NCBI GenBank assembly: GCA_045597865.1
Contig: JAZLKX010000052.1
Coordinates: forward strand, 160,001-224,000
Length of the DNA: 64,000 nt
Direction: 5' to 3'
DNA from: Bacilli bacterium
GTDB lineage: Bacteria; Bacillota_I; Bacilli_A; RFN20; CAG-826
Below, one piece after another: positions 21,963 to 49,994 of the stretch (its first letter is position 1; the number at the start of each line of letters is the position of its first letter). The translations under genes were made by a program, and so were the position numbers. The notes under the pieces are model-generated. The model did no database searches. It saw only the letters and a program-made list of their open reading frames with translations, and was not told the origin of the DNA.

Positions 21963-22093
21963 GTAAACAAAATTTTACATTAAGGACAGATAGGTTGTCA
22001 ATTCCTATTTGGCAGGGCACGCCAATGCCCTGCCTAACTTATATAAATAATATAGACGAATTGGCGTTCGTCTTAAAATAAAGGAAATTGACA

Positions 22094-23839
22094 ATGGATA
22101 TAGAAAATGCTATTTTTATTGATGAAAATGCAGATCTTCATCAAATTAAAAACACCAATACAGTAAAATTCATATGCAAAGACTGCGATAACGCAGTCTA
22201 TATGATTTTTAAATGCTTCAAAAAATCCAAATTATTTTTGTGTAAGTCTTGTAAAACAAAAAAGACATGCACCGTTAAATATGGCAGTCCAAATATGTTT
22301 GCGTCAGATGCTTTAAAGCAGGCGAGACTGAAAAAACAAAATGGCAAATGGATAACCGATGATGCTAAAGAAAAAATGAAAACGACTAAGACAGAAAAAT
22401 ACGATGATCCGTATTATACAAATAGAGCAAAATCAGCAGAATCCTTTAAACGTCACAAAGAAGAAAAACCGCATTTCTTAGAAAGCATTAAAGAAAAAAC
22501 AAAAAATACATGCATGCAAAAATATAATGTTGAACATGTTTCACATACACAAGAATGGCAAGATAAACATAAATTAACTTGTTTAGAAAAATACGGCACC
22601 GAATGGTATTTTCAGTCAAATGACGCTAAAACCAAAATAACGCAATCATTGCTTACTAGATATAATGTTGAACATGCACTACAATGCGATAAATTTAAAA
22701 CCAAGGCATTTAGCAAACATGGCATGACACGTCCTGAAAAAAAGATTTATGAATTTTTAACTAATCGTAAATTTCAATTCAAACACCAGTATGCAGTCAA
22801 TGGCAAGTCATTTGATTTTGCGATTTTTAATAATGATAAATTGGAAATCTTAATTGAAATAGACGGCGTGTATTTTCATGGACTGTTGGAAGACTGCAAT
22901 GGCAAACACAGCCGCGGTGAACTAGACCATGAAAGATTTGCATTAGTTCCAGAAAATGTTAAATTTATAGTATGCGATGACAAAAATATTGACGCATGTT
23001 TTAGTGAAATTCTAAAAGTGTATGATATTAACTATGATAAATGGATTGATGATATGATTGAAGCATTACCGGCTAATTTTCCATACCCATCATATACTTT
23101 GAAACGAATGATGAAAGATTATGATCATTTAATTAAAAACGATTATAACAAACACGCAAATTTAGGATTAAGTATCATTCATAACTTTCATAAATCAATA
23201 TGGACTGCGCATCGTGAAAATATGTTATCTCCAGTATCATGCTGGCAAGATCCTGAAAAGTTAAAAAAATCAGTTAAGAATCGTGTAATATACAGTTCAT
23301 CATTATCATCACAGCAAATTGCTCGTGGATTTAATATTAGTGGTATAGCGAAAACCGTTTCAGTTTTCAACGCATCATTAGCAAAACACATCATTGAAAC
23401 ATATCTTGCTGAATATGATACTGTTTTTGACCCATTTAGCGGTTTTAGTGGCAGAATGCTTGGAACATGTGCATGTAATAAAAAGTACATTGGCCAAGAT
23501 ATCAATGAAAAACATGTAAACGAAAGCAATGAAATCATCAAAACATTTAATCTAAATGCAGCAGTCACAGAAAAAGACATATTTGAAAGCGAAGGTGAGT
23601 ATGACTGCCTATTTACATGCAGTCCGTATCATTTAAAAGAAATCTGGAATGAAACTGAAACTGACATGAGCTGCGATGCATGGATTGACGAATGTCTTAA
23701 ACGATTTAAATGTAAACGATATGTGTTTGTGGTTGACGAAACGGAAAAGTATAAAGACTTCGTTGCTGAGACATTAGTCAATAAAAGTCATTTTGGTAAA
23801 AACAATGAATTTATCATCGTAATAAATAATATAAAATAA
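22094..23839 (+). CDS. free-standing endonuclease (Vsr/DUF559-like) fused to an amino-DNA methyltransferase domain
   Basis: Zn-ribbon, T(C)xxKYG/N repeats, PEKKIY...FDFAI...IEIDGVYFH nuclease, VFDPFSGFSGR (motif I), IGQDINE, LFTCSPY (motif IV-like); AT-rich. Confidence 0.75.
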   Translation: MDIENAIFIDENADLHQIKNTNTVKFICKDCDNAVYMIFKCFKKSKLFLCKSCKTKKTCTVKYGSPNMFASDALKQARLKKQNGKWITDDAKEKMKTTKTEKYDDPYYTNRAKSAESFKRHKEEKPHFLESIKEKTKNTCMQKYNVEHVSHTQEWQDKHKLTCLEKYGTEWYFQSNDAKTKITQSLLTRYNVEHALQCDKFKTKAFSKHGMTRPEKKIYEFLTNRKFQFKHQYAVNGKSFDFAIFNNDKLEILIEIDGVYFHGLLEDCNGKHSRGELDHERFALVPENVKFIVCDDKNIDACFSEILKVYDINYDKWIDDMIEALPANFPYPSYTLKRMMKDYDHLIKNDYNKHANLGLSIIHNFHKSIWTAHRENMLSPVSCWQDPEKLKKSVKNRVIYSSSLSSQQIARGFNISGIAKTVSVFNASLAKHIIETYLAEYDTVFDPFSGFSGRMLGTCACNKKYIGQDINEKHVNESNEIIKTFNLNAAVTEKDIFESEGEYDCLFTCSPYHLKEIWNETETDMSCDAWIDECLKRFKCKRYVFVVDETEKYKDFVAETLVNKSHFGKNNEFIIVINNIK

Positions 23840-25914: not shown

Positions 25915-27636
25915 ATGATTTGTAAAGAATGTGGATGTGATGTTGGCTCGCTAGGTATGCACATTAAGCATAAACATGGAATGAATGCTGAAACATACTA
26001 TAATAAACATATAGCTGCAACTAATGGAATTTGTAAAACATGTGGAAAGCCAACAAAATTCATTGGTATAGAAAAAGGCGGATATAGACAATACTGCAGT
26101 GTTAAATGCATGGCTAATTCTGAAGAAATTAAAGATAAGCGTGAACAGACTAATCTTAAAATTCGTGGAGTCAAATGTAATCTAGCTTCAGCAGAAAATC
26201 GTGAAAAACAGTATGAAACGTGCCTAAAGAAATATGGAACGAAATTTCCACAACAGTTAGATAGCATTAAAGAGAAGGCGAAAACAACCAATCTTGAAAG
26301 ACGCGGAACTGAATGGTTTGTGCAAACAGATGAATTTAAAGAAAAGATAAAACAGAACTGTTTGAATAAATCAGATGGAAAATACACATGGACTTCGCAG
26401 TTTCCTGAAACCATTGAAAAACGTGTTGCTGCGTTTAAAGAAAATCATGAACAATGGTTAAACCGTTATACCGAAACGTGCAATGAACGTTATGGCGTAA
26501 ACAATCCAATGCAAGTTCCGGAAATTCGTAAAAGATCTCAGCACAAATATACATATGATGGAATTAACTTCGACAGTAGTGCAGAACTGGCATATTATAT
26601 CTGGCTTACAGACAAAAATGTTAAGTTTGAATACCAGCCAAATGTTTCATTTAGTTTTGCTTATAATGGAAAAGAACATTCATATCAGCCAGATTTTCTA
26701 GTAGATGGCAAATACATAGAACTAAAAGGAAGTTACTTTTTTGAAAATGGTAAAATGATAAACCCGTATGACAGAACACAAGACGGTTTATACGAAGCAA
26801 AACATCAATGTATGATTGCTAATAATGTACAGATAGTCACTGATTATTCGTCATACAAAAACTATGTAGACGAAAAGTATACAAAAGACTTTCTTCAACT
26901 ATTTAGAAATGATCTTCCATTTCCATATATAAATGCTGACTTATCTGATACAAGTGATTTAGGCGTAATTCATCACTTTCATAAATCAATATATGAAGCT
27001 TCCAGAAAAAATACCGTTTCGCCGCTGCTTGCGTGGGAAAACAAAGAATTGGTTAAGAAGTGTGCATTGAATAGACTTAAATATGTTAAACGTTGTAAGC
27101 CGGGAGATATTCTTCAGGGATTTAATGTTGCCAAAATAGCGCCAAAAGTTTCATTATTTAAGCCAACATTGGCTGAAAGGCTAATAAACAAATATCTTGC
27201 CAAATATGATACCGTTTTTGACCCATTTAGTGGTTTTTCGGGAAGAATGATCGGCTGTGAGAACTGTGGCAAAAAATATATTGGACAAGACATAAATGAA
27301 AAACATATATCTGAAGGAAACGAAATCATTGCATATAAAAACTATCAAAATAGCAGCTTAGCCGTTCAGGATGTTTTAACCGATACCAATAAGAAATTTG
27401 CGTGTTTGTTTACTTGTCCACCCTATGGCGGTAAAGAACATTGGAATATAAATAATGATGAAGTTGAAAAAACATGCGATGAATGGATAGATATCTGTTT
27501 AGAAAAGTATGATTGTGAATCATATCTTTTTGTTGTGGATAAAACTAATAAATATAAATATAATATCGTTGAAACTATTACTAATAAAAGTCATTTTGGC
27601 AACAATAATGAATATGTTATATTCATAAAGAGGTAA
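25915..27636 (+). CDS. free-standing PD-(D/E)xK endonuclease fused to an amino-DNA methyltransferase domain
   Basis: C2H2 and CxxC Zn fingers, TCxxKYG repeats, FDSSAE...EYQP...YQPDF...IELKG nuclease, VFDPFSGFSGR, IGQDINE, LFTCPPY. Confidence 0.75.
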   Translation: MICKECGCDVGSLGMHIKHKHGMNAETYYNKHIAATNGICKTCGKPTKFIGIEKGGYRQYCSVKCMANSEEIKDKREQTNLKIRGVKCNLASAENREKQYETCLKKYGTKFPQQLDSIKEKAKTTNLERRGTEWFVQTDEFKEKIKQNCLNKSDGKYTWTSQFPETIEKRVAAFKENHEQWLNRYTETCNERYGVNNPMQVPEIRKRSQHKYTYDGINFDSSAELAYYIWLTDKNVKFEYQPNVSFSFAYNGKEHSYQPDFLVDGKYIELKGSYFFENGKMINPYDRTQDGLYEAKHQCMIANNVQIVTDYSSYKNYVDEKYTKDFLQLFRNDLPFPYINADLSDTSDLGVIHHFHKSIYEASRKNTVSPLLAWENKELVKKCALNRLKYVKRCKPGDILQGFNVAKIAPKVSLFKPTLAERLINKYLAKYDTVFDPFSGFSGRMIGCENCGKKYIGQDINEKHISEGNEIIAYKNYQNSSLAVQDVLTDTNKKFACLFTCPPYGGKEHWNINNDEVEKTCDEWIDICLEKYDCESYLFVVDKTNKYKYNIVETITNKSHFGNNNEYVIFIKR

Positions 27637-31035: not shown

Positions 31036-31821
31036 ATGAATCTTAATGAAGCATTGAACATTCTTGAAAAACATGGTTTTATCACAGAAGCTAGCAATGA
31101 GATAATTACTATTCCTGGCCGTATTAAAAACGATGTTCTTATAATGGCGGCCCGCCGCATTGGAATTTCCAAAGCAGAAGTGGCGGAATTCATTAATAGT
31201 AATGAAAAAGTGCAGCAAGGATTATCATACATTTGTCTGCATACTCGCGATATGAATAATCCTGAGGCTTACGTTGACGCATTGGAAAAATACTGGAATG
31301 AACTGATTTATATGGGTGAAGCTGCTGAACCTGGCTATATGCATGGCGATATTTCAGCTTGGGACCGTGAAAAGATTAACAAAGGCCAAACACCAAGATG
31401 GGCTAAGAAGGTAACTGATATTGGCCCTCGTAAGAAAGAACTTCGTCAGTCAAGCTCTTATTCTGAAATTGCTATGAGAAGCGTGAATACACCAGATGGC
31501 AAAGCAAAGCAGCCTTACACTGAATCTGATTGGCGCCGTGATAAGGAAAATGCAACAGCAATGAATCAACGTATTGCTGATACGGTAGCAAACTTGCTTT
31601 CAAAATTTGAACCGTTTGACCATACTGACGCAAACCAGGAATATGCTTCTATTTATGTTAAAGCTAAAGACGGCCAGTTAGATGAATATCGCGTATACAA
31701 CCGTATGCGTGGTTATATTGTAAAGTTCATCGGACATGAATCTGTATTCAGCCGCAAATCAGAATCAGTTGAAAACATCCATGCTGTAGCAATTTACATT
31801 AAGAATGGAGGAAAAATCTAA
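31036..31821 (+). CDS. putative capsid-packaged internal protein
   Basis: MNLNEALNILEKHGFITE leader; late promoter. Confidence 0.65.
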   Translation: MNLNEALNILEKHGFITEASNEIITIPGRIKNDVLIMAARRIGISKAEVAEFINSNEKVQQGLSYICLHTRDMNNPEAYVDALEKYWNELIYMGEAAEPGYMHGDISAWDREKINKGQTPRWAKKVTDIGPRKKELRQSSSYSEIAMRSVNTPDGKAKQPYTESDWRRDKENATAMNQRIADTVANLLSKFEPFDHTDANQEYASIYVKAKDGQLDEYRVYNRMRGYIVKFIGHESVFSRKSESVENIHAVAIYIKNGGKI

Positions 31822-34089: not shown

Positions 34090-35030
34090 ATGCTATTAAG
34101 CGAAGCTAAAGAAATCTTGAAAAAAGAACGGTTACACACTATCAGAAGATGCTTATACTGATGAATACACGCCTGATTATGTGTCAAAGCTTGATAAGAT
34201 TTTGTTGAATTTGGATTTTGTGAAACTGCATAAACAAGTCCATGAACATGATTTATCATATATTGGTTTCATTACAGGAACAAAGTATATGTTACATTTT
34301 ATGGTAGATTCAGACGATGTTATTACTTGTAATGTTGTAGAAACAGATAAACAAAAAGCACAAAAAGTACAGAAAGTAACTATGGGTATTGATTCTGATA
34401 ACTATGATAGAGAATACATCGATGTAAATGACTTTATTGAGAACAGTGAATATTATTTAGAAAATGTACAGAAAGTCGTTGAAAATGTTAAAAAGATAGA
34501 TAGAAGCAGTAAGTCAAAGCTAGGAAGAATTGCTAACGGTATAACAAAAGCATTAAGTAATGATTTTGATACAAGATATAGCGGTTTAAGAGATATTGGC
34601 GAAGCAGTAAAACTATTAAAGAAAAATGGCTACCGTCTTACTGAAGCATATGATGCTGTAACTGCGCATAAAAACGAAAAAGGAGCAGATAACAAGGATA
34701 GTTATTATACCAATGTGCTGGTAAGATTAAAGAATGCTTTAGCTGAAGAAGGCATTGAAAGTAAAGTTAGTAGTACTCTTGCACAAGGAAGAAACGCAAT
34801 TAAAAACGTTTTTGGGATTCGGCAGATACCGTGTAACGCTTTACAATGTAGATTCAGCCTTTAGTCCAGTTGATGGAAATATTATGGACGACAACCGTGC
34901 TGGGTATTCCGAGATGGAAAATGAGGTAACATTAAAACTTTTTGCTGATTGGAAACAAGTATCAGCTGCCGACTTTGACGTTAGAAATATACCAAGTATG
35001 GTAAAATGGATTCTTACCAACATTAAATAA
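34090..35030 (+). pseudogene. MLLSEA-leader gene broken by two +1 A insertions (or homopolymer sequencing errors)
   Basis: ATG 34090 MLLSEAKEILKK; removing one A from the runs at 34120-34125 and 34802-34806 joins ORFs 34181 and 34755 into one 312-aa frame. Confidence 0.7.
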
Positions 35031-35078
35031 AAATTTGTAGCTCCAAGCCTGATAAGATCGGACACGTTTCAAGCTACA

Positions 35079-35108
35079 ACCCTGGGCGGTCTGCCCAGGG
35101 TTTCTTTT
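35079..35108 (+). terminator. rho-independent terminator
   Basis: AACCCTGGGC-GGTCT-GCCCAGGGTT plus T-rich tail. Confidence 0.8.
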
Positions 35109-35316
35109 ATGTTTAAAAACTTGATTTTTCAAAAAAATAAGCAAAAATCCATTCTTAAATTTCATAAATTTAAGCAATTTTATTACAGTTTTTCGTCAAA
35201 AACATCTGTGGTTGTGTTGTAATTCATTATTACGGTCAATTATCAAGCAAAACACAAAAACTGCGGTTTTTCTCCCATTTTGCTGTAATAAATACATTAG
35301 TGAGGTTTCCTATATT

Positions 35317-36219
35317 ATGTTTAAGAAAAATGAAAATTTGAAGGCAGCTGGCGAAAAAATCCAAATGACACCTGAGCAAGTACAGGAGTACATTAAGTGC
35401 CGTCGTGACATTTTCCATTTTGCGAATTATTTCACAATTATGGCTGAAGACGGTGAACATCCGATTAAGCTGCGTGGCTATCAGAAAAAGTTAGTAAAGT
35501 CAATTACAACCAAAGTACCAGAAAAGAATAACAGAATCATTATGATGGGTCGTCAGTCAGGTAAGACGACTATTGCTACTCTATATCTTACTTGGTTTGC
35601 ATTATTCAACAAAGCAAAGATTATCGCTGTGCTTGCTAACAAGGCAGCACAGGCTGATGAAATCATGCTTCGTATTCAACAGGCATATATGAACTTGCCG
35701 TTATGGTTACAGCAAGGAATTATGAAATGGAACCAATCTGAATTTATTCTTGAAAATAAAACACGAGTATTTTCAGCAGCTAGTTCCTCAAGCTCTATTC
35801 GTGGTAAAACTGTTGACCTTGAACTTGTAGACGAATTTGCTCACTTGGACGATAACATAGCTGACGCATTTATGGCATCAGTGTTCCCTACACAGGCATC
35901 TAGACCTGACTCAATGCTTTTGCTAATTTCAACGCCTAAGGGTATGAACCATTTCTATGATATCTGGCAGAAAGCTAAATCCGGTCGTAATTCATTTATC
36001 CCATGTAAAATCCAGTGGTGGGAAATTGATGGTCGTGACGAGAAATGGAAGGAACGAGTCATACGTGATAACGGCATCAAATACTTTAACCAGGAATTTG
36101 CCTGTGTAACTGGTGAGACGCAAATAACAGTAAAAGATGATGCCGGCAAAGTAAAAACTGCCCCAATCGCTGAAATTTGTGATTGGTTAAAAGACGTAAA
36201 CTCGCTCCAGACGGCTTAA
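35317..36219 (+). CDS. terL: large terminase ATPase half (T4 gp17 N-terminal) ending in a split-intein N-fragment
   Basis: GRQSGKTT Walker A, LVDEFAH Walker B, ISTPKGMNHFY, FNQEFA then CVTGETQITV... and stop; no nuclease domain. Confidence 0.9.
   Translation: MFKKNENLKAAGEKIQMTPEQVQEYIKCRRDIFHFANYFTIMAEDGEHPIKLRGYQKKLVKSITTKVPEKNNRIIMMGRQSGKTTIATLYLTWFALFNKAKIIAVLANKAAQADEIMLRIQQAYMNLPLWLQQGIMKWNQSEFILENKTRVFSAASSSSSIRGKTVDLELVDEFAHLDDNIADAFMASVFPTQASRPDSMLLLISTPKGMNHFYDIWQKAKSGRNSFIPCKIQWWEIDGRDEKWKERVIRDNGIKYFNQEFACVTGETQITVKDDAGKVKTAPIAEICDWLKDVNSLQTA
36103..36219 (+). other. split intein N-fragment (38 aa)
   Basis: CVTGETQITVKD...PIAEI matches intein block A (C..G.T.I) at the terminase QEF.|C site. 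Confidence 0.8.
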
Positions 36220-36240
36220 CTTACTTTATATGAAAAACAT

Positions 36241-36271
36241 AACCTCTATCTAAATAAATAATCTAGAGGTT
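36241..36271 (+). promoter_or_regulatory. RBS-sequestering hairpin with late promoter in the loop
   Basis: AACCTCTA / TAGAGGTT inverted repeat around TAAATAAATA; ATG at 36277. Confidence 0.75.
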
Positions 36272-36276
36272 TAAAT

Positions 36277-37686
36277 ATGTTTACTTGTAAAATTTGTAAT
36301 GAAACGTTTGAAAAAATCAATGGTTTACTGACACATATACAGTTCAACCATAAAGAACATTCGCCTGAGTCTTACTATAGACAACATATCATGGCTGTTG
36401 GTGAAGGCTTTTGTAAAACATGTGGTAAACCAACAAAGTTCAATGGTATCAAAACCGGCTATCAAACATACTGTAATCGTAAGTGTGTATGGGCAGATCC
36501 TGAAATCAAAGCAAAGCGTAAAATTACAAATAGCGCCAAGACTGATTCTGAAATTCTTGAATGGAAAATAAGAAATAAAGAATCCCGGCTAAAAAAGAAT
36601 AACGGTAATTATTCGCCGTTACATGACTTAGCTAAAAGACAGGAAATTAGCGAAAAGCATTTTAAGGAATACTTTGCTAAGTGTAACTGCGAATTTATTA
36701 AGTATGATGATAAAGTTCACTTTCGCTGCAATAAATGCGGCTGTGAAGATGCATTTACTCGTAGTGTTATTGACCGTTATGACAGAACTAATGATTATGA
36801 CGTTTGCCACTATTGTAATGATAGGCGTTTTGTTAGTACGCCTGAACGCGAAATACGTAAATACATAGAAACGTTTTATGAAGGCAAGATAATTTCAGGC
36901 GATAGACTTGTTTTGAATGGAAAAGAACTAGACCTATATTTTCCTGACAAAAAGCTCGCTATTGAATATGATGGTTTTCATTGGCATAATGAAAACTGCA
37001 TTCCCGCAGGCTATCATCTAGAAAAAACAAATGCATGTGAAGCAAATGGTATTCAACTTATTCATATATTTGAAACTGAATGGTTGAATAAGCCAGAAAT
37101 CGTTAAAAGTAGAATACGAAACTTATTTGAAGGCAACAATAGGATCTTTGCACGTAAATGCAGGATTAAGGAAATATCAGCAGATGCCGCAAAAACTTTT
37201 TTACAGCAGAATCATATACAGGGGTGGTGTTGCTCAAAATGGCGATATGGTCTTGAATACAATGGCGAGCTAGTTTCGCTTATGACATTTGGTAAATCAC
37301 GATTTAAAGATGAATATGAACTTTTAAGATTTGCGAATAAGCTAGATACGAATGTTATTGGCGGAGCATCAAGACTTTTTAAACACTTTGTTAATGACCA
37401 TTCAGAAATAAAGAAAATCATTTCTTTCGCTGACCGTAGATGGAGCATTGGCAACTTATATGAAAAAATTGGTTTTACTAAAATTGGCGCAACGCCGCCA
37501 TCATACTACTACAGAATAGACAATGAACTTAAGAACCGAGTCAACTTTCAAAAACATAAGCTCGTTGCTAATGGTGCTGACCCTAATAAGACCGAACATG
37601 AGATTATGAAAGAACGCGGCTATCTAAGAATATACGACTGTGGCTGTCTGAAGTATGAATGGTCTGATGATTCACAATCAGTATAA
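36277..37686 (+). CDS. free-standing Hef-like endonuclease: Zn fingers, Vsr/DUF559-like nuclease and GNAT/Mom-like C-terminal domain
   Basis: ELDLYFPDKKLAIEYDGFHWH, GIQLIHIFETEW; then IFARKC, NHIQG, YELLRFA, GGASRL, IISFADRRWS.G.LY..IGF. Confidence 0.75.
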   Translation: MFTCKICNETFEKINGLLTHIQFNHKEHSPESYYRQHIMAVGEGFCKTCGKPTKFNGIKTGYQTYCNRKCVWADPEIKAKRKITNSAKTDSEILEWKIRNKESRLKKNNGNYSPLHDLAKRQEISEKHFKEYFAKCNCEFIKYDDKVHFRCNKCGCEDAFTRSVIDRYDRTNDYDVCHYCNDRRFVSTPEREIRKYIETFYEGKIISGDRLVLNGKELDLYFPDKKLAIEYDGFHWHNENCIPAGYHLEKTNACEANGIQLIHIFETEWLNKPEIVKSRIRNLFEGNNRIFARKCRIKEISADAAKTFLQQNHIQGWCCSKWRYGLEYNGELVSLMTFGKSRFKDEYELLRFANKLDTNVIGGASRLFKHFVNDHSEIKKIISFADRRWSIGNLYEKIGFTKIGATPPSYYYRIDNELKNRVNFQKHKLVANGADPNKTEHEIMKERGYLRIYDCGCLKYEWSDDSQSV

Positions 37687-37693
37687 ATAAAAT

Positions 37694-38017
37694 ATGGCGA
37701 ACATAACATATCGTACAAACTTTCTAAAGGACGTTGAAGTTGATGACATTGTTCAGAAAGACATGTCATCAATGAATTTTGGCGATTTTGATTTTGGTCC
37801 TGTTAGCTATTATAAATGTACGCAATTTGATATTGGCCGTCCAGATTTAATTTCATACAAGATTTACGGAACAACGAATTACTGGTGGTTCTTGATGTGG
37901 TTCAATGGCGTATCTGACGCGTGGAATGATATTAGAGAAAATATGCTAATTGCTTTCCCGTCATTAGATATGGCACGTGAAGCACTAAAGTTTGCTCGTA
38001 AGAGGAGTAACAAGTAA
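37694..38017 (+). CDS. baseplate wedge protein (T4 gp53-like, LysM-like)
   Basis: RPDLISYKIYG...YWWFLMWFNG. Confidence 0.8.
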   Translation: MANITYRTNFLKDVEVDDIVQKDMSSMNFGDFDFGPVSYYKCTQFDIGRPDLISYKIYGTTNYWWFLMWFNGVSDAWNDIRENMLIAFPSLDMAREALKFARKRSNK

Positions 38018-38364
38018 TGAAATTGACAGAAGCATTTCATATTCTTTCTAAGAACGGATACGAATATACTCGCTTGAATGAAAATAACGATTTAAGTGAT
38101 TATTTACTTCAGCGAGTATATCAAGTAGCCACTGAAATTTATACCAGGGAGATTGCAGATCATGCACCTAATCTTGATTCTACAAATCGTCCTGACCATG
38201 ATTATCTGCAGCGATTTGACTATCTTTCTGATAGTTTGAAAGCTGCGGTAAAACGCGCGGCAGTCGCTCTGAAAAATGACCTCGCTGCTGAAGGTTTTGA
38301 TATTCATGAAACGAATGTTGAAACCGAAATCTTTGACGCATTGAAACTTTACGCCAAGGATTAG
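38017..38364 (+). CDS. putative capsid-packaged internal protein
   Basis: MKLTEAFHILSKNGY...LNE leader. Confidence 0.6.
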   Translation: MKLTEAFHILSKNGYEYTRLNENNDLSDYLLQRVYQVATEIYTREIADHAPNLDSTNRPDHDYLQRFDYLSDSLKAAVKRAAVALKNDLAAEGFDIHETNVETEIFDALKLYAKD

Positions 38365-38402
38365 AATAAATAAAACAAAAGCTCATTTAAGGAGATGATA
38401 TA

Positions 38403-38771
38403 ATGAATCTTTTTGAACAGTACATTAAGAATGCCTGCCGTTTTGTTAACGAAGGCTTAGAAGATGAACTACCAGCTGAAGCTCCAGCCGAACTTCCTGC
38501 TGAAGGTGGCGAAGAACTTCCTCTAGATGGTGAAGAAGAACTTCCTACTGAAGGTGATGAAGACCAGGCATGCGAAGAATCTATGGAAGATCTTAAGGCA
38601 CAGATTGCTGACCTTCAGAGTCAGGTTACTGAATTGCTTGAACTTGTTCAGTCATTGACAGGCGAAGCTGCTGAAGGCGCTGATGATCTTGCTGGTGAAG
38701 ACGAACTTCCTGCCGAAGGTGATGAAGACCTTGCTGGCGAAGATCCTGGCTTCGAAGACGAAGACATTTAA
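38403..38771 (+). CDS. acidic prohead core-like protein
   Basis: VNE site, ELPAEG repeats, short coiled coil; late promoter. Confidence 0.55.
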   Translation: MNLFEQYIKNACRFVNEGLEDELPAEAPAELPAEGGEELPLDGEEELPTEGDEDQACEESMEDLKAQIADLQSQVTELLELVQSLTGEAAEGADDLAGEDELPAEGDEDLAGEDPGFEDEDI

Positions 38772-38864: not shown

Positions 38865-39170
38865 AAAATCATTAAGCCGTTTCCTCGGAACGAAACTCAA
38901 CCCAATGACGCTGTCGGTAGAGGGACGCCATTTGAGCTAGAATTGCTTAGCTCGTGAATAGAAATGAAAATGCAATAGCGAAGTGGAAACTAGCCCTTTC
39001 CACATATAGCCGCCAATAGCATTATGGGATGTAGCCGGAATACAGGTTGACCGCTCCGTAAGCCCATAAGTGAGTCTACTTACAACGTCATACGGTTCAC
39101 CAGTCAAAACAAAGACTCGGTATTCTTGACGGTAAGCTCTACCGGGCTTACTGTCTCCGGTTACCATATC
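38865..39170 (+). ncRNA. candidate structured non-coding RNA (unclassified)
   Basis: GC-richer gap without a credible ORF, with multiple nested helices; TATATTTG upstream. Strand is inferred. Confidence 0.5.
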
Positions 39171-49388: not shown

Positions 49389-49994
49389 ATGAAACAGTTT
49401 GATAAATTATGTGATACATTCAATATAGATGGCGTAAGCGAAAGCGTCATTAATGCTGCAATAGCACCTCCGGCACCAGTTGTAGTTCCTGATGAAGACG
49501 AGGACGAAACTGATGAATCTGCTGAGACACCTGAACCACAGCCGCAGCTGACATATAAAGGTCAAAAATATACACTTGACTCATTCCGCTATATGAAGTC
49601 TTTGCTACAACAAAAGATTCAAACGGATAGTGATGTTTTGGCTACAATGCAACAGATGTGTAAGGTTGGTGCTAACGCTCGTCTATTTGAAGTATATGCA
49701 ACTTTATCAAATACTGTTGCTGCGCAGATTAAACAGCTGCAAGATATGGAAAAGGTGATGACTGATTATCAGGTCACTGAAGAACGCGAAAAAATGCAGC
49801 GCGAAAATATGGCTCAAAAGGAACGCCTTTTACAGATTAAAGCTGAAGCTGGTTCTGGTGGCAATACTTATAACATTCAGAATAACACAAACCTTTGCTT
49901 AACCTCAACAGAACTAGAAGCAATGCTTGAAAAGGCAGACACAGATCGGCAAATAAATACTGCACAGATTTCAACGGATTTTGATTTGGAATAA
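49389..49994 (+). CDS. small terminase subunit (T4 gp16-like)
   Basis: ARLFEVYATL...QLQD.EK and NIQNN.N..LTSTEL..ML pattern. Confidence 0.7.
   Translation: MKQFDKLCDTFNIDGVSESVINAAIAPPAPVVVPDEDEDETDESAETPEPQPQLTYKGQKYTLDSFRYMKSLLQQKIQTDSDVLATMQQMCKVGANARLFEVYATLSNTVAAQIKQLQDMEKVMTDYQVTEEREKMQRENMAQKERLLQIKAEAGSGGNTYNIQNNTNLCLTSTELEAMLEKADTDRQINTAQISTDFDLE

Follow-up and report, generated by a model that had tools for sequence, protein, structure and literature searches.

Several split inteins have been described in the large terminase (TerL) of T4-like phages. The N- and C-fragments (IntN and IntC) have 25/104 aa in AceL-TerL, 37/115 aa in GOS-TerL and 30/104 aa in the consensus Cat (PDB 6DSL), and these inteins splice at 1.7e-3 to 1.6e-2 in the table of PMC11766414. 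They resemble the locus reported here in having a T4-like terminase host and a short IntN that starts with Cys1, and their IntC is long. In the fractured loci treated in PMC2677866, the three coding regions stand together, unlike the window (the whole 64-kb stretch of DNA that was analysed), which has no C-half within 27.8 kb of the N-half and whose terminase split is fixed in a lineage. Halves at separate loci represent step IV of gene breaking, an end state that PMC2677866 cites only for the cyanobacterial split DnaE and the Nanoarchaeum equitans DNA polymerase. Unlike the terminase of the window, those are polymerases of cells, and their IntN is long and their IntC short, as is usual.

The Vibrio phages Va1, K469, and VP-1 carry split inteins at the same insertion site as the window, and the IntN of Va1 consists of 32 aa followed by a stop. 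However, their halves are adjacent and an endonuclease-like region is fused to one intein fragment. This fusion is in frame with IntN in kaaroe, K469, and VP-1 and with IntC in Va1 (loci L012, L013, L016, and L017, from cultured E. coli and Vibrio phages). According to PMC3322345, an intron with an endonuclease interrupts the terminase of Campylobacter phage IBB_35. The same locus (L011, HM246721 42250-46537) reads as a split intein, with a short IntN and a stop, an intervening ORF, and an IntC.

Distant halves are found in Fletchervirus, whose members with a split terminase include F336, F207, CP81, CP30A, Los1, NCTC12673, and others. The Campylobacter phage F336 encodes a terminase N-part of 207 aa with a 31-aa IntN at 108355-109071 on the minus strand and an IntC-terminase at about 1490-2815 on the plus strand. 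F207 has an intact 100-aa IntC. The IntC gene of F336 is frameshifted near an A-run (L006 1490-1560) where F207 is intact, and a sequencing error is possible. The halves are 22.0-26.2 kb apart and on opposite strands in 14/14 genomes for which the gap was computed from both coordinates; 39 records contain the N-half. The GenBank annotation of Fletchervirus notes the IntC domain. Since these are cultured phages, we infer that an uncoupled split terminase is viable. Fletchervirus resembles the window in its distant halves and in a 31-aa IntN homologous to that of the window. However, its insertion lies right after Walker B and cuts the ATPase, whereas that of the window lies at the ATPase-nuclease junction. 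The two splits are most likely separate events because the sites differ and the exteins are only 30% identical. The sequence-only reading of this DNA stated that the C-half of such inteins usually lies near the N-half; distant halves have a precedent in the annotated Fletchervirus genomes. No paper on the split-intein terminase of Fletchervirus was found, which is weak evidence as subscription papers were mostly outside the search. In the same scope, no literature was found on trans-splicing inteins of the terminase large subunit or on terminase inteins of rumen phages.

The features of the locus are as follows.

35078..35102, plus strand: terminator-like hairpin closing the upstream unit (11 pairs, T-rich tail)
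35287..35305, plus strand: T4-type late-promoter-like AATAAATA and Shine-Dalgarno-like GTGAGG of terL-N (putative function)
35317..36219, plus strand: terL-N ORF, 300 aa counted from ATG
35317..36102, plus strand: TerL N-extein with the whole ATPase domain, 262 aa (Terminase_6N, PHROGs, and T4 gp17 matches)
36103..36219, plus strand: split-intein N-fragment, 38 aa, atypically short, Cys1, then stop (profiles, relatives, and P0366 alignment)
36235..36282, plus strand: predicted mRNA hairpin over the Shine-Dalgarno and start codon of the endonuclease, with a TAAATA late-promoter-like repeat in the loop
36277..37686, plus strand: free-standing Hef-like homing endonuclease, 469 aa (phrog_3339; CxxC motifs)
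37682..37689, plus strand: TATAAATA, which overlaps the stop codon of the endonuclease and is a likely late promoter of the following gene
37694..38017, plus strand: baseplate wedge gp53-like gene (Pfam E 0.0026; PHROGs tail/baseplate families)

The product of 35317-36219 is an intact T4-like terminase ATPase followed by a 38-aa intein N-fragment. The terL-N product matches Terminase_6N (E 7.5e-17) and T4 gp17 (E 3e-41). Walker A (residues 78-84), Walker B (170-173), and the ISTP motif (204-207) were identified, and their core residues are invariant in 49/49 aligned sequences, which were selected for possessing the tail and are 58-84% identical to the window protein. The Walker A, Walker B, and coupling motifs that define a T4-like large terminase are all intact.

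The tail opens at Cys263 and consists of 38 residues closed by a stop codon, i.e. a short Cys-starting IntN in frame after the terminase N-extein. Its homology to characterised IntNs is seen in CatN, in the IntN of F336, and in the continuity with P0366. The tail profile built from relatives has a sole significant match in the F336 genome, which is the split-terminase IntN (E 2.3e-6). The clade profile matches CatN (6DSL_A 1-31) at profile positions 260-290 in the right register with E 0.075, which is weak taken alone and is the top non-terminase match among 177,635 sequences. The alignment of the window protein with P0366 also runs across the junction and reaches into the intein of the latter, which is contiguous. 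Searches of PDB and NCBIfam with the single IntN sequence gave nothing useful, and the detection was by profiles only. At the level of sequence, these comparisons confirm the tail as an intein N-fragment homologous to the Cat TerL IntN. The IntN is much less conserved than the extein (median identity to the window 29% versus 66%).

The insertion lies directly before a conserved host Cys, as is characteristic of an intein site; the residue after the site in unsplit relatives is most often Cys, with Asn or Val in some. The site corresponds to about residue 353/354 of T4 gp17, near the ATPase-nuclease boundary, the numbering of which was deduced from chain lengths (2O0H is a 360-residue ATPase construct). 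Contiguous inteins occupy the same TerL site in P0365, P0366, and P0378. The CatN alignment suggests that the AceL and GOS inteins are also at exactly this site.

The window comes from the genome of a T4-like phage and encodes portal, gp23 capsid, prohead protease, sheath, RegA, topoisomerase, and baseplate proteins. Only one annotated gene is on the minus strand, and ATAAATA occurs 44 times on the plus strand and 3 times on the minus strand. No tRNA genes were found in the 64 kb. A cow-rumen-2 RNA (RF02947) is located at 38977-39082 between two late genes (score of 106 bits, where the cut-off is 66). This RNA and the yak-omasum record of the relative L003 suggest a rumen phage. The packaging genes are scattered, as a small-terminase-like gene (phrog_445, E 7.8e-5) is located at 49389-49994, about 13 kb downstream of terL-N. 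The terminator-like hairpin upstream of terL-N has a z of -2.7 (region 35040-35130).

The Hef-like endonuclease matches phrog_3339 over residues 21-463 (E 4.8e-117), i.e. it is a full-length member of that family, and also has weak MTES_1575 nuclease and Mom-like matches. Its GC3 is 0.29 compared to 0.37 for terL-N. The hairpin over its start has -11.1 kcal/mol and z -2.1, with 8/200 shuffles equally stable, which is modest support. Together with the late-promoter element it corresponds, again modestly, to the hairpin and late-promoter arrangement upstream of gene-fracturing endonucleases given by Dassa et al. (2009), as far as the account in PMC2677866 goes. However, the Hef-like gene is followed not by an IntC gene but by gp53, which occupies the place of the IntC-terminase gene in a classical fractured locus. 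The order of N-half, endonuclease, and C-half on one strand (Dassa et al., 2009) is thus absent here. Endonucleases of the phrog_3339 type occupy 11 places in the F336 genome. The Hef-like endonuclease is a predicted passenger of the locus, and it could be either what is left of the fracturing element or a gene that arrived later. Two other genes of the window, 22088-23839 and 25915-27636, combine a homing-endonuclease-like N-terminal part (DUF7487, phrog_3339) with a methyltransferase-like C-terminal part, and the first 80 aa of the latter product are 49% identical to the Hef gene product. A similar N-terminal motif (L.EA..IL...GY-like) is found at the start of several unrelated ORFs at 31036, 31821, 32043, 32667, and 38017 of the window and at 2800 of L003. 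This motif could be a capsid-targeting leader, as in T4 internal proteins.

The partner of the IntN was searched for in the window with one profile built from 30 IntC sequences and another from 32 C-extein sequences, without filters, against all 1217 six-frame segments of at least 25 aa. Neither an IntC (best E 0.61) nor a terminase nuclease half (best E 2.2) was found in the 64 kb, and pairwise searches and a motif scan of the window likewise yielded no partner. The same profiles detected the control genome F336 (IntC 1.1e-18, C-extein 2.8e-57); for IntC this control is partly circular, as the training set includes a close F207 IntC, whereas the C-extein control is free of such overlap. The 351-aa ORF at 49981, behind the small-terminase-like gene, would fit a C-half in size, yet the searches matched it to nothing (best E 0.36 and 3.9). 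The window extends 27,781 nt to the right of the terL-N stop and 35,316 nt to the left of the terL-N start. Therefore, given a faithful contig, a partner must lie at least 27.8 kb downstream or at least 35.3 kb upstream. The sequence-only reading had described a gp17-type ATPase half ending in a 38-aa IntN, followed by an endonuclease and then gp53, with no IntC-terminase ORF in the 64 kb and at least 27 kb between the halves. The gene and its tail are upheld by the CatN, F336, and P0366 evidence, the gene order by the phrog_3339 and Pfam/PHROGs matches, and the absence and the distance by the empty profiles, the detected control, and the position of the stop.

The same split was identified in the relatives of terL-N. 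A total of 368 matches of 165-525 aa were found, of which the best 120 (59-99% identical) were used. A Cys-initiated tail with a total length of 28-39 aa is present at the same site in 117 of these 120, as counted with a pattern, QE(F/Y/H)x-Cys plus tail, that itself requires the Cys. The other three (P0098, P0100, and P0101) were counted as misses; their sequences depart from the others shortly before the junction, as if by a frameshift or truncation. Among longer relatives, the best 120 of 1650 matches reach 47% identity at most, so this word-based search revealed no unsplit allele within the lineage. The split N-exteins form a single clade (support 100, stem 0.49). Its placement among the reference proteins is poorly resolved, as the AU test kept two alternatives (p 0.17 and 0.08) with 2000 replicates, which were flagged as too few. 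Judging from these proteins, the terminase split is a trait of the whole lineage, a point absent from the sequence-only reading. Six of the relatives (P0004, P0008, P0014, P0038, P0089, and P0110) come from long contigs of 245-417 kb.

The scan of genome contigs yielded three loci, which are two relatives (L002 and L003) and one unrelated unsplit gene. The two relatives are the only close ones with genomic context, each on a contig of about 3 kb. In both, terL-N runs straight into a neck-protein-like gene without endonuclease and without IntC, so the endonuclease is not a fixed part of the locus. The terL-N of L003 is frameshifted (1200-1270), possibly through a sequencing error. No close cultured relative and no complete genome of the lineage were found in the phage collection, with a top TerL match of 44% (all under 60%), top capsid matches of about 32%, and matches of 31-37% to the candidate partner P0463 among the 15 matches listed. 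A complete genome of the lineage was not found in the plasmid collection either. An atlas look-up with the homologue P0014 returned only viral terminase-fragment clusters.

Candidate partners were identified among database proteins. Same-site IntC-nuclease proteins make up 25 of the best 120 of 136 profile matches, and a filter-free search with P0310 added further ones (64 of 147 new representatives). Many of these proteins fit the partner shape that had been predicted from the sequence alone, with an IntC of about 100-120 aa ending in HN, followed by Cys and an RNase H domain. The IntC profile matches CatC with E 1.5e-26. The tree of nuclease halves exhibits a nine-member clade without unsplit members (SH-aLRT 97) that consists of P0463, P0428, P0473, P0407, P0390, P0380, P0422, P0443, and P0393. 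The unsplit reference proteins beside this clade are also those next to the N clade. Its IntCs have 82-119 aa, 9/9 end in Asn-Cys, and 8/9 have a block B His. The P0463/P0380 clade is the best candidate, and a candidate only, for the partner of the window IntN. A second all-split clade (P0403, P0409, P0411, P0445, P0379, and P0506) is the alternative. No C-half tied to the window genome or to any contig with an N-half was found in the collections searched. The window IntN is acidic, and the candidate IntCs have no consistent positive charge to match; charge complementarity as a partner guide singled out no IntC.

The complex of the window IntN with the IntC of P0463 was also modelled. The model scored 0.55 compared to 0.00 for the best control, its runs share at least 81% of contacts, and the partner pLDDT is at least 67. 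The mark for this model is met by 116 of 157 solved pairs and 2 of 215 mismatched pairs, and the range at or below 0.60 holds 18 of the 157 solved pairs and both mismatched ones. The model weakly suggests association, and a pass by likeness is probable because the Cat complex has already been solved.

The findings in this work are best explained by fixed, uncoupled protein trans-splicing of the terminase in a T4-like phage lineage, to which we assign a probability of about 0.8. We infer the location and family of the partner, the splicing itself, and the history as follows. Two far-apart, separately transcribed genes, both expressed late, would supply the large terminase. The terL-N locus would make ATPase(1-262)-IntN(38), and the distant gene would make an IntC of about 100-120 aa with a His-Asn end, followed by Cys+1 and an RNase H-like nuclease domain. 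The short IntN would dock into the IntC to complete the HINT fold. Class 1 splicing would then proceed by the N-S shift of Cys1, transfer to Cys+1, and Asn cyclisation, a chemistry carried over from the AceL, GOS, and Cat inteins as presented in PMC11766414. The product would be an ordinary terminase of about 510 aa. The intein may have entered at the conserved Cys of the ATPase-nuclease junction and later been broken near its own N-terminus, and the halves would have been uncoupled in the ancestor of the lineage (step IV of the Dassa model, as outlined in PMC2677866). The Hef gene would be a free-standing passenger under its own late promoter.

The two halves might instead form a two-subunit terminase without ligation, with the intein fragments only docking or cleaving without joining. 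The site is near the end of the 2O0H ATPase construct, so each half could fold alone, and intein-less fractured phage enzymes do work (Aeh1 NrdA, as cited in PMC2677866). However, this is quite unlikely in view of the invariance of Cys1 in the 49 aligned proteins (chosen for the tail) and of Asn and Cys+1 in 48/48 same-site IntC proteins (selected by motif), and the homologous AceL, GOS, and Cat TerL inteins do splice according to the table of PMC11766414. RNA-level joining by intron splicing or ribosomal bypass in place of protein splicing is scarcely credible: the tail is a HINT N-fragment, Rfam intron families are absent from the window, and no downstream exon lies within 27.8 kb, although a similar Campylobacter phage locus was described with an intron in the account of PMC3322345.

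It is very unlikely that an assembly chimera or a recent local rearrangement explains the locus. The true locus would then be a classical fractured gene from which the contig switched after the endonuclease; the N-half, the hairpin and late promoter, and the endonuclease do resemble a Dassa-type locus that lacks its last third, some phages carry several copies of Hef-like genes, and the endonuclease-gp53 junction is known from one assembly only. However, the endonuclease ORF is intact and its residues 46-462 align with relatives, its stop overlaps the late-promoter motif for gp53, no long repeats were found at 34900-38500, and the adjacent C-half is missing in the two independent relatives (L002 and L003) as well. 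The partner that was neither found in the window nor located elsewhere would also fit a dead remnant or a helper-dependent phage whose genome lacks its own C-half. This is highly improbable given the invariant ATPase motifs across proteins 58-84% identical to that of the window, the relatives on contigs up to 417 kb, and the portal, capsid, protease, sheath, and baseplate genes of the window.

TerL inteins with an atypical split were known already, as were uncoupled split inteins and, in annotated Campylobacter phage genomes, unlinked halves. New in this work are the large number of short IntNs and the lineage-wide fixation of the split at the ATPase-nuclease junction. It is conceivable, though unlikely, that the uncoupled split is domesticated rather than tolerated, with two unrelated phage lineages, Fletchervirus and that of the window, having fixed trans-spliced terminases at different sites. 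Because the cut is at the motor-nuclease junction, separate expression or conditional splicing could under such domestication gate the coupling of DNA cutting to the motor, and diverged IntN/IntC pairs could decide which co-infecting relatives exchange or rescue terminase halves. The Fletchervirus genomes make the uncoupled split terminase testable in cultured phages. The lineage offers more than 100 natural short IntN variants (28-39 aa), a size wanted for chemical protein labelling once the cognate IntCs are paired. Phage classification based on the terminase would score such genomes as truncated. If the trans-splicing reading is correct, an essential enzyme of virion assembly relies on trans-splicing between distant genes across an uncultured phage lineage.
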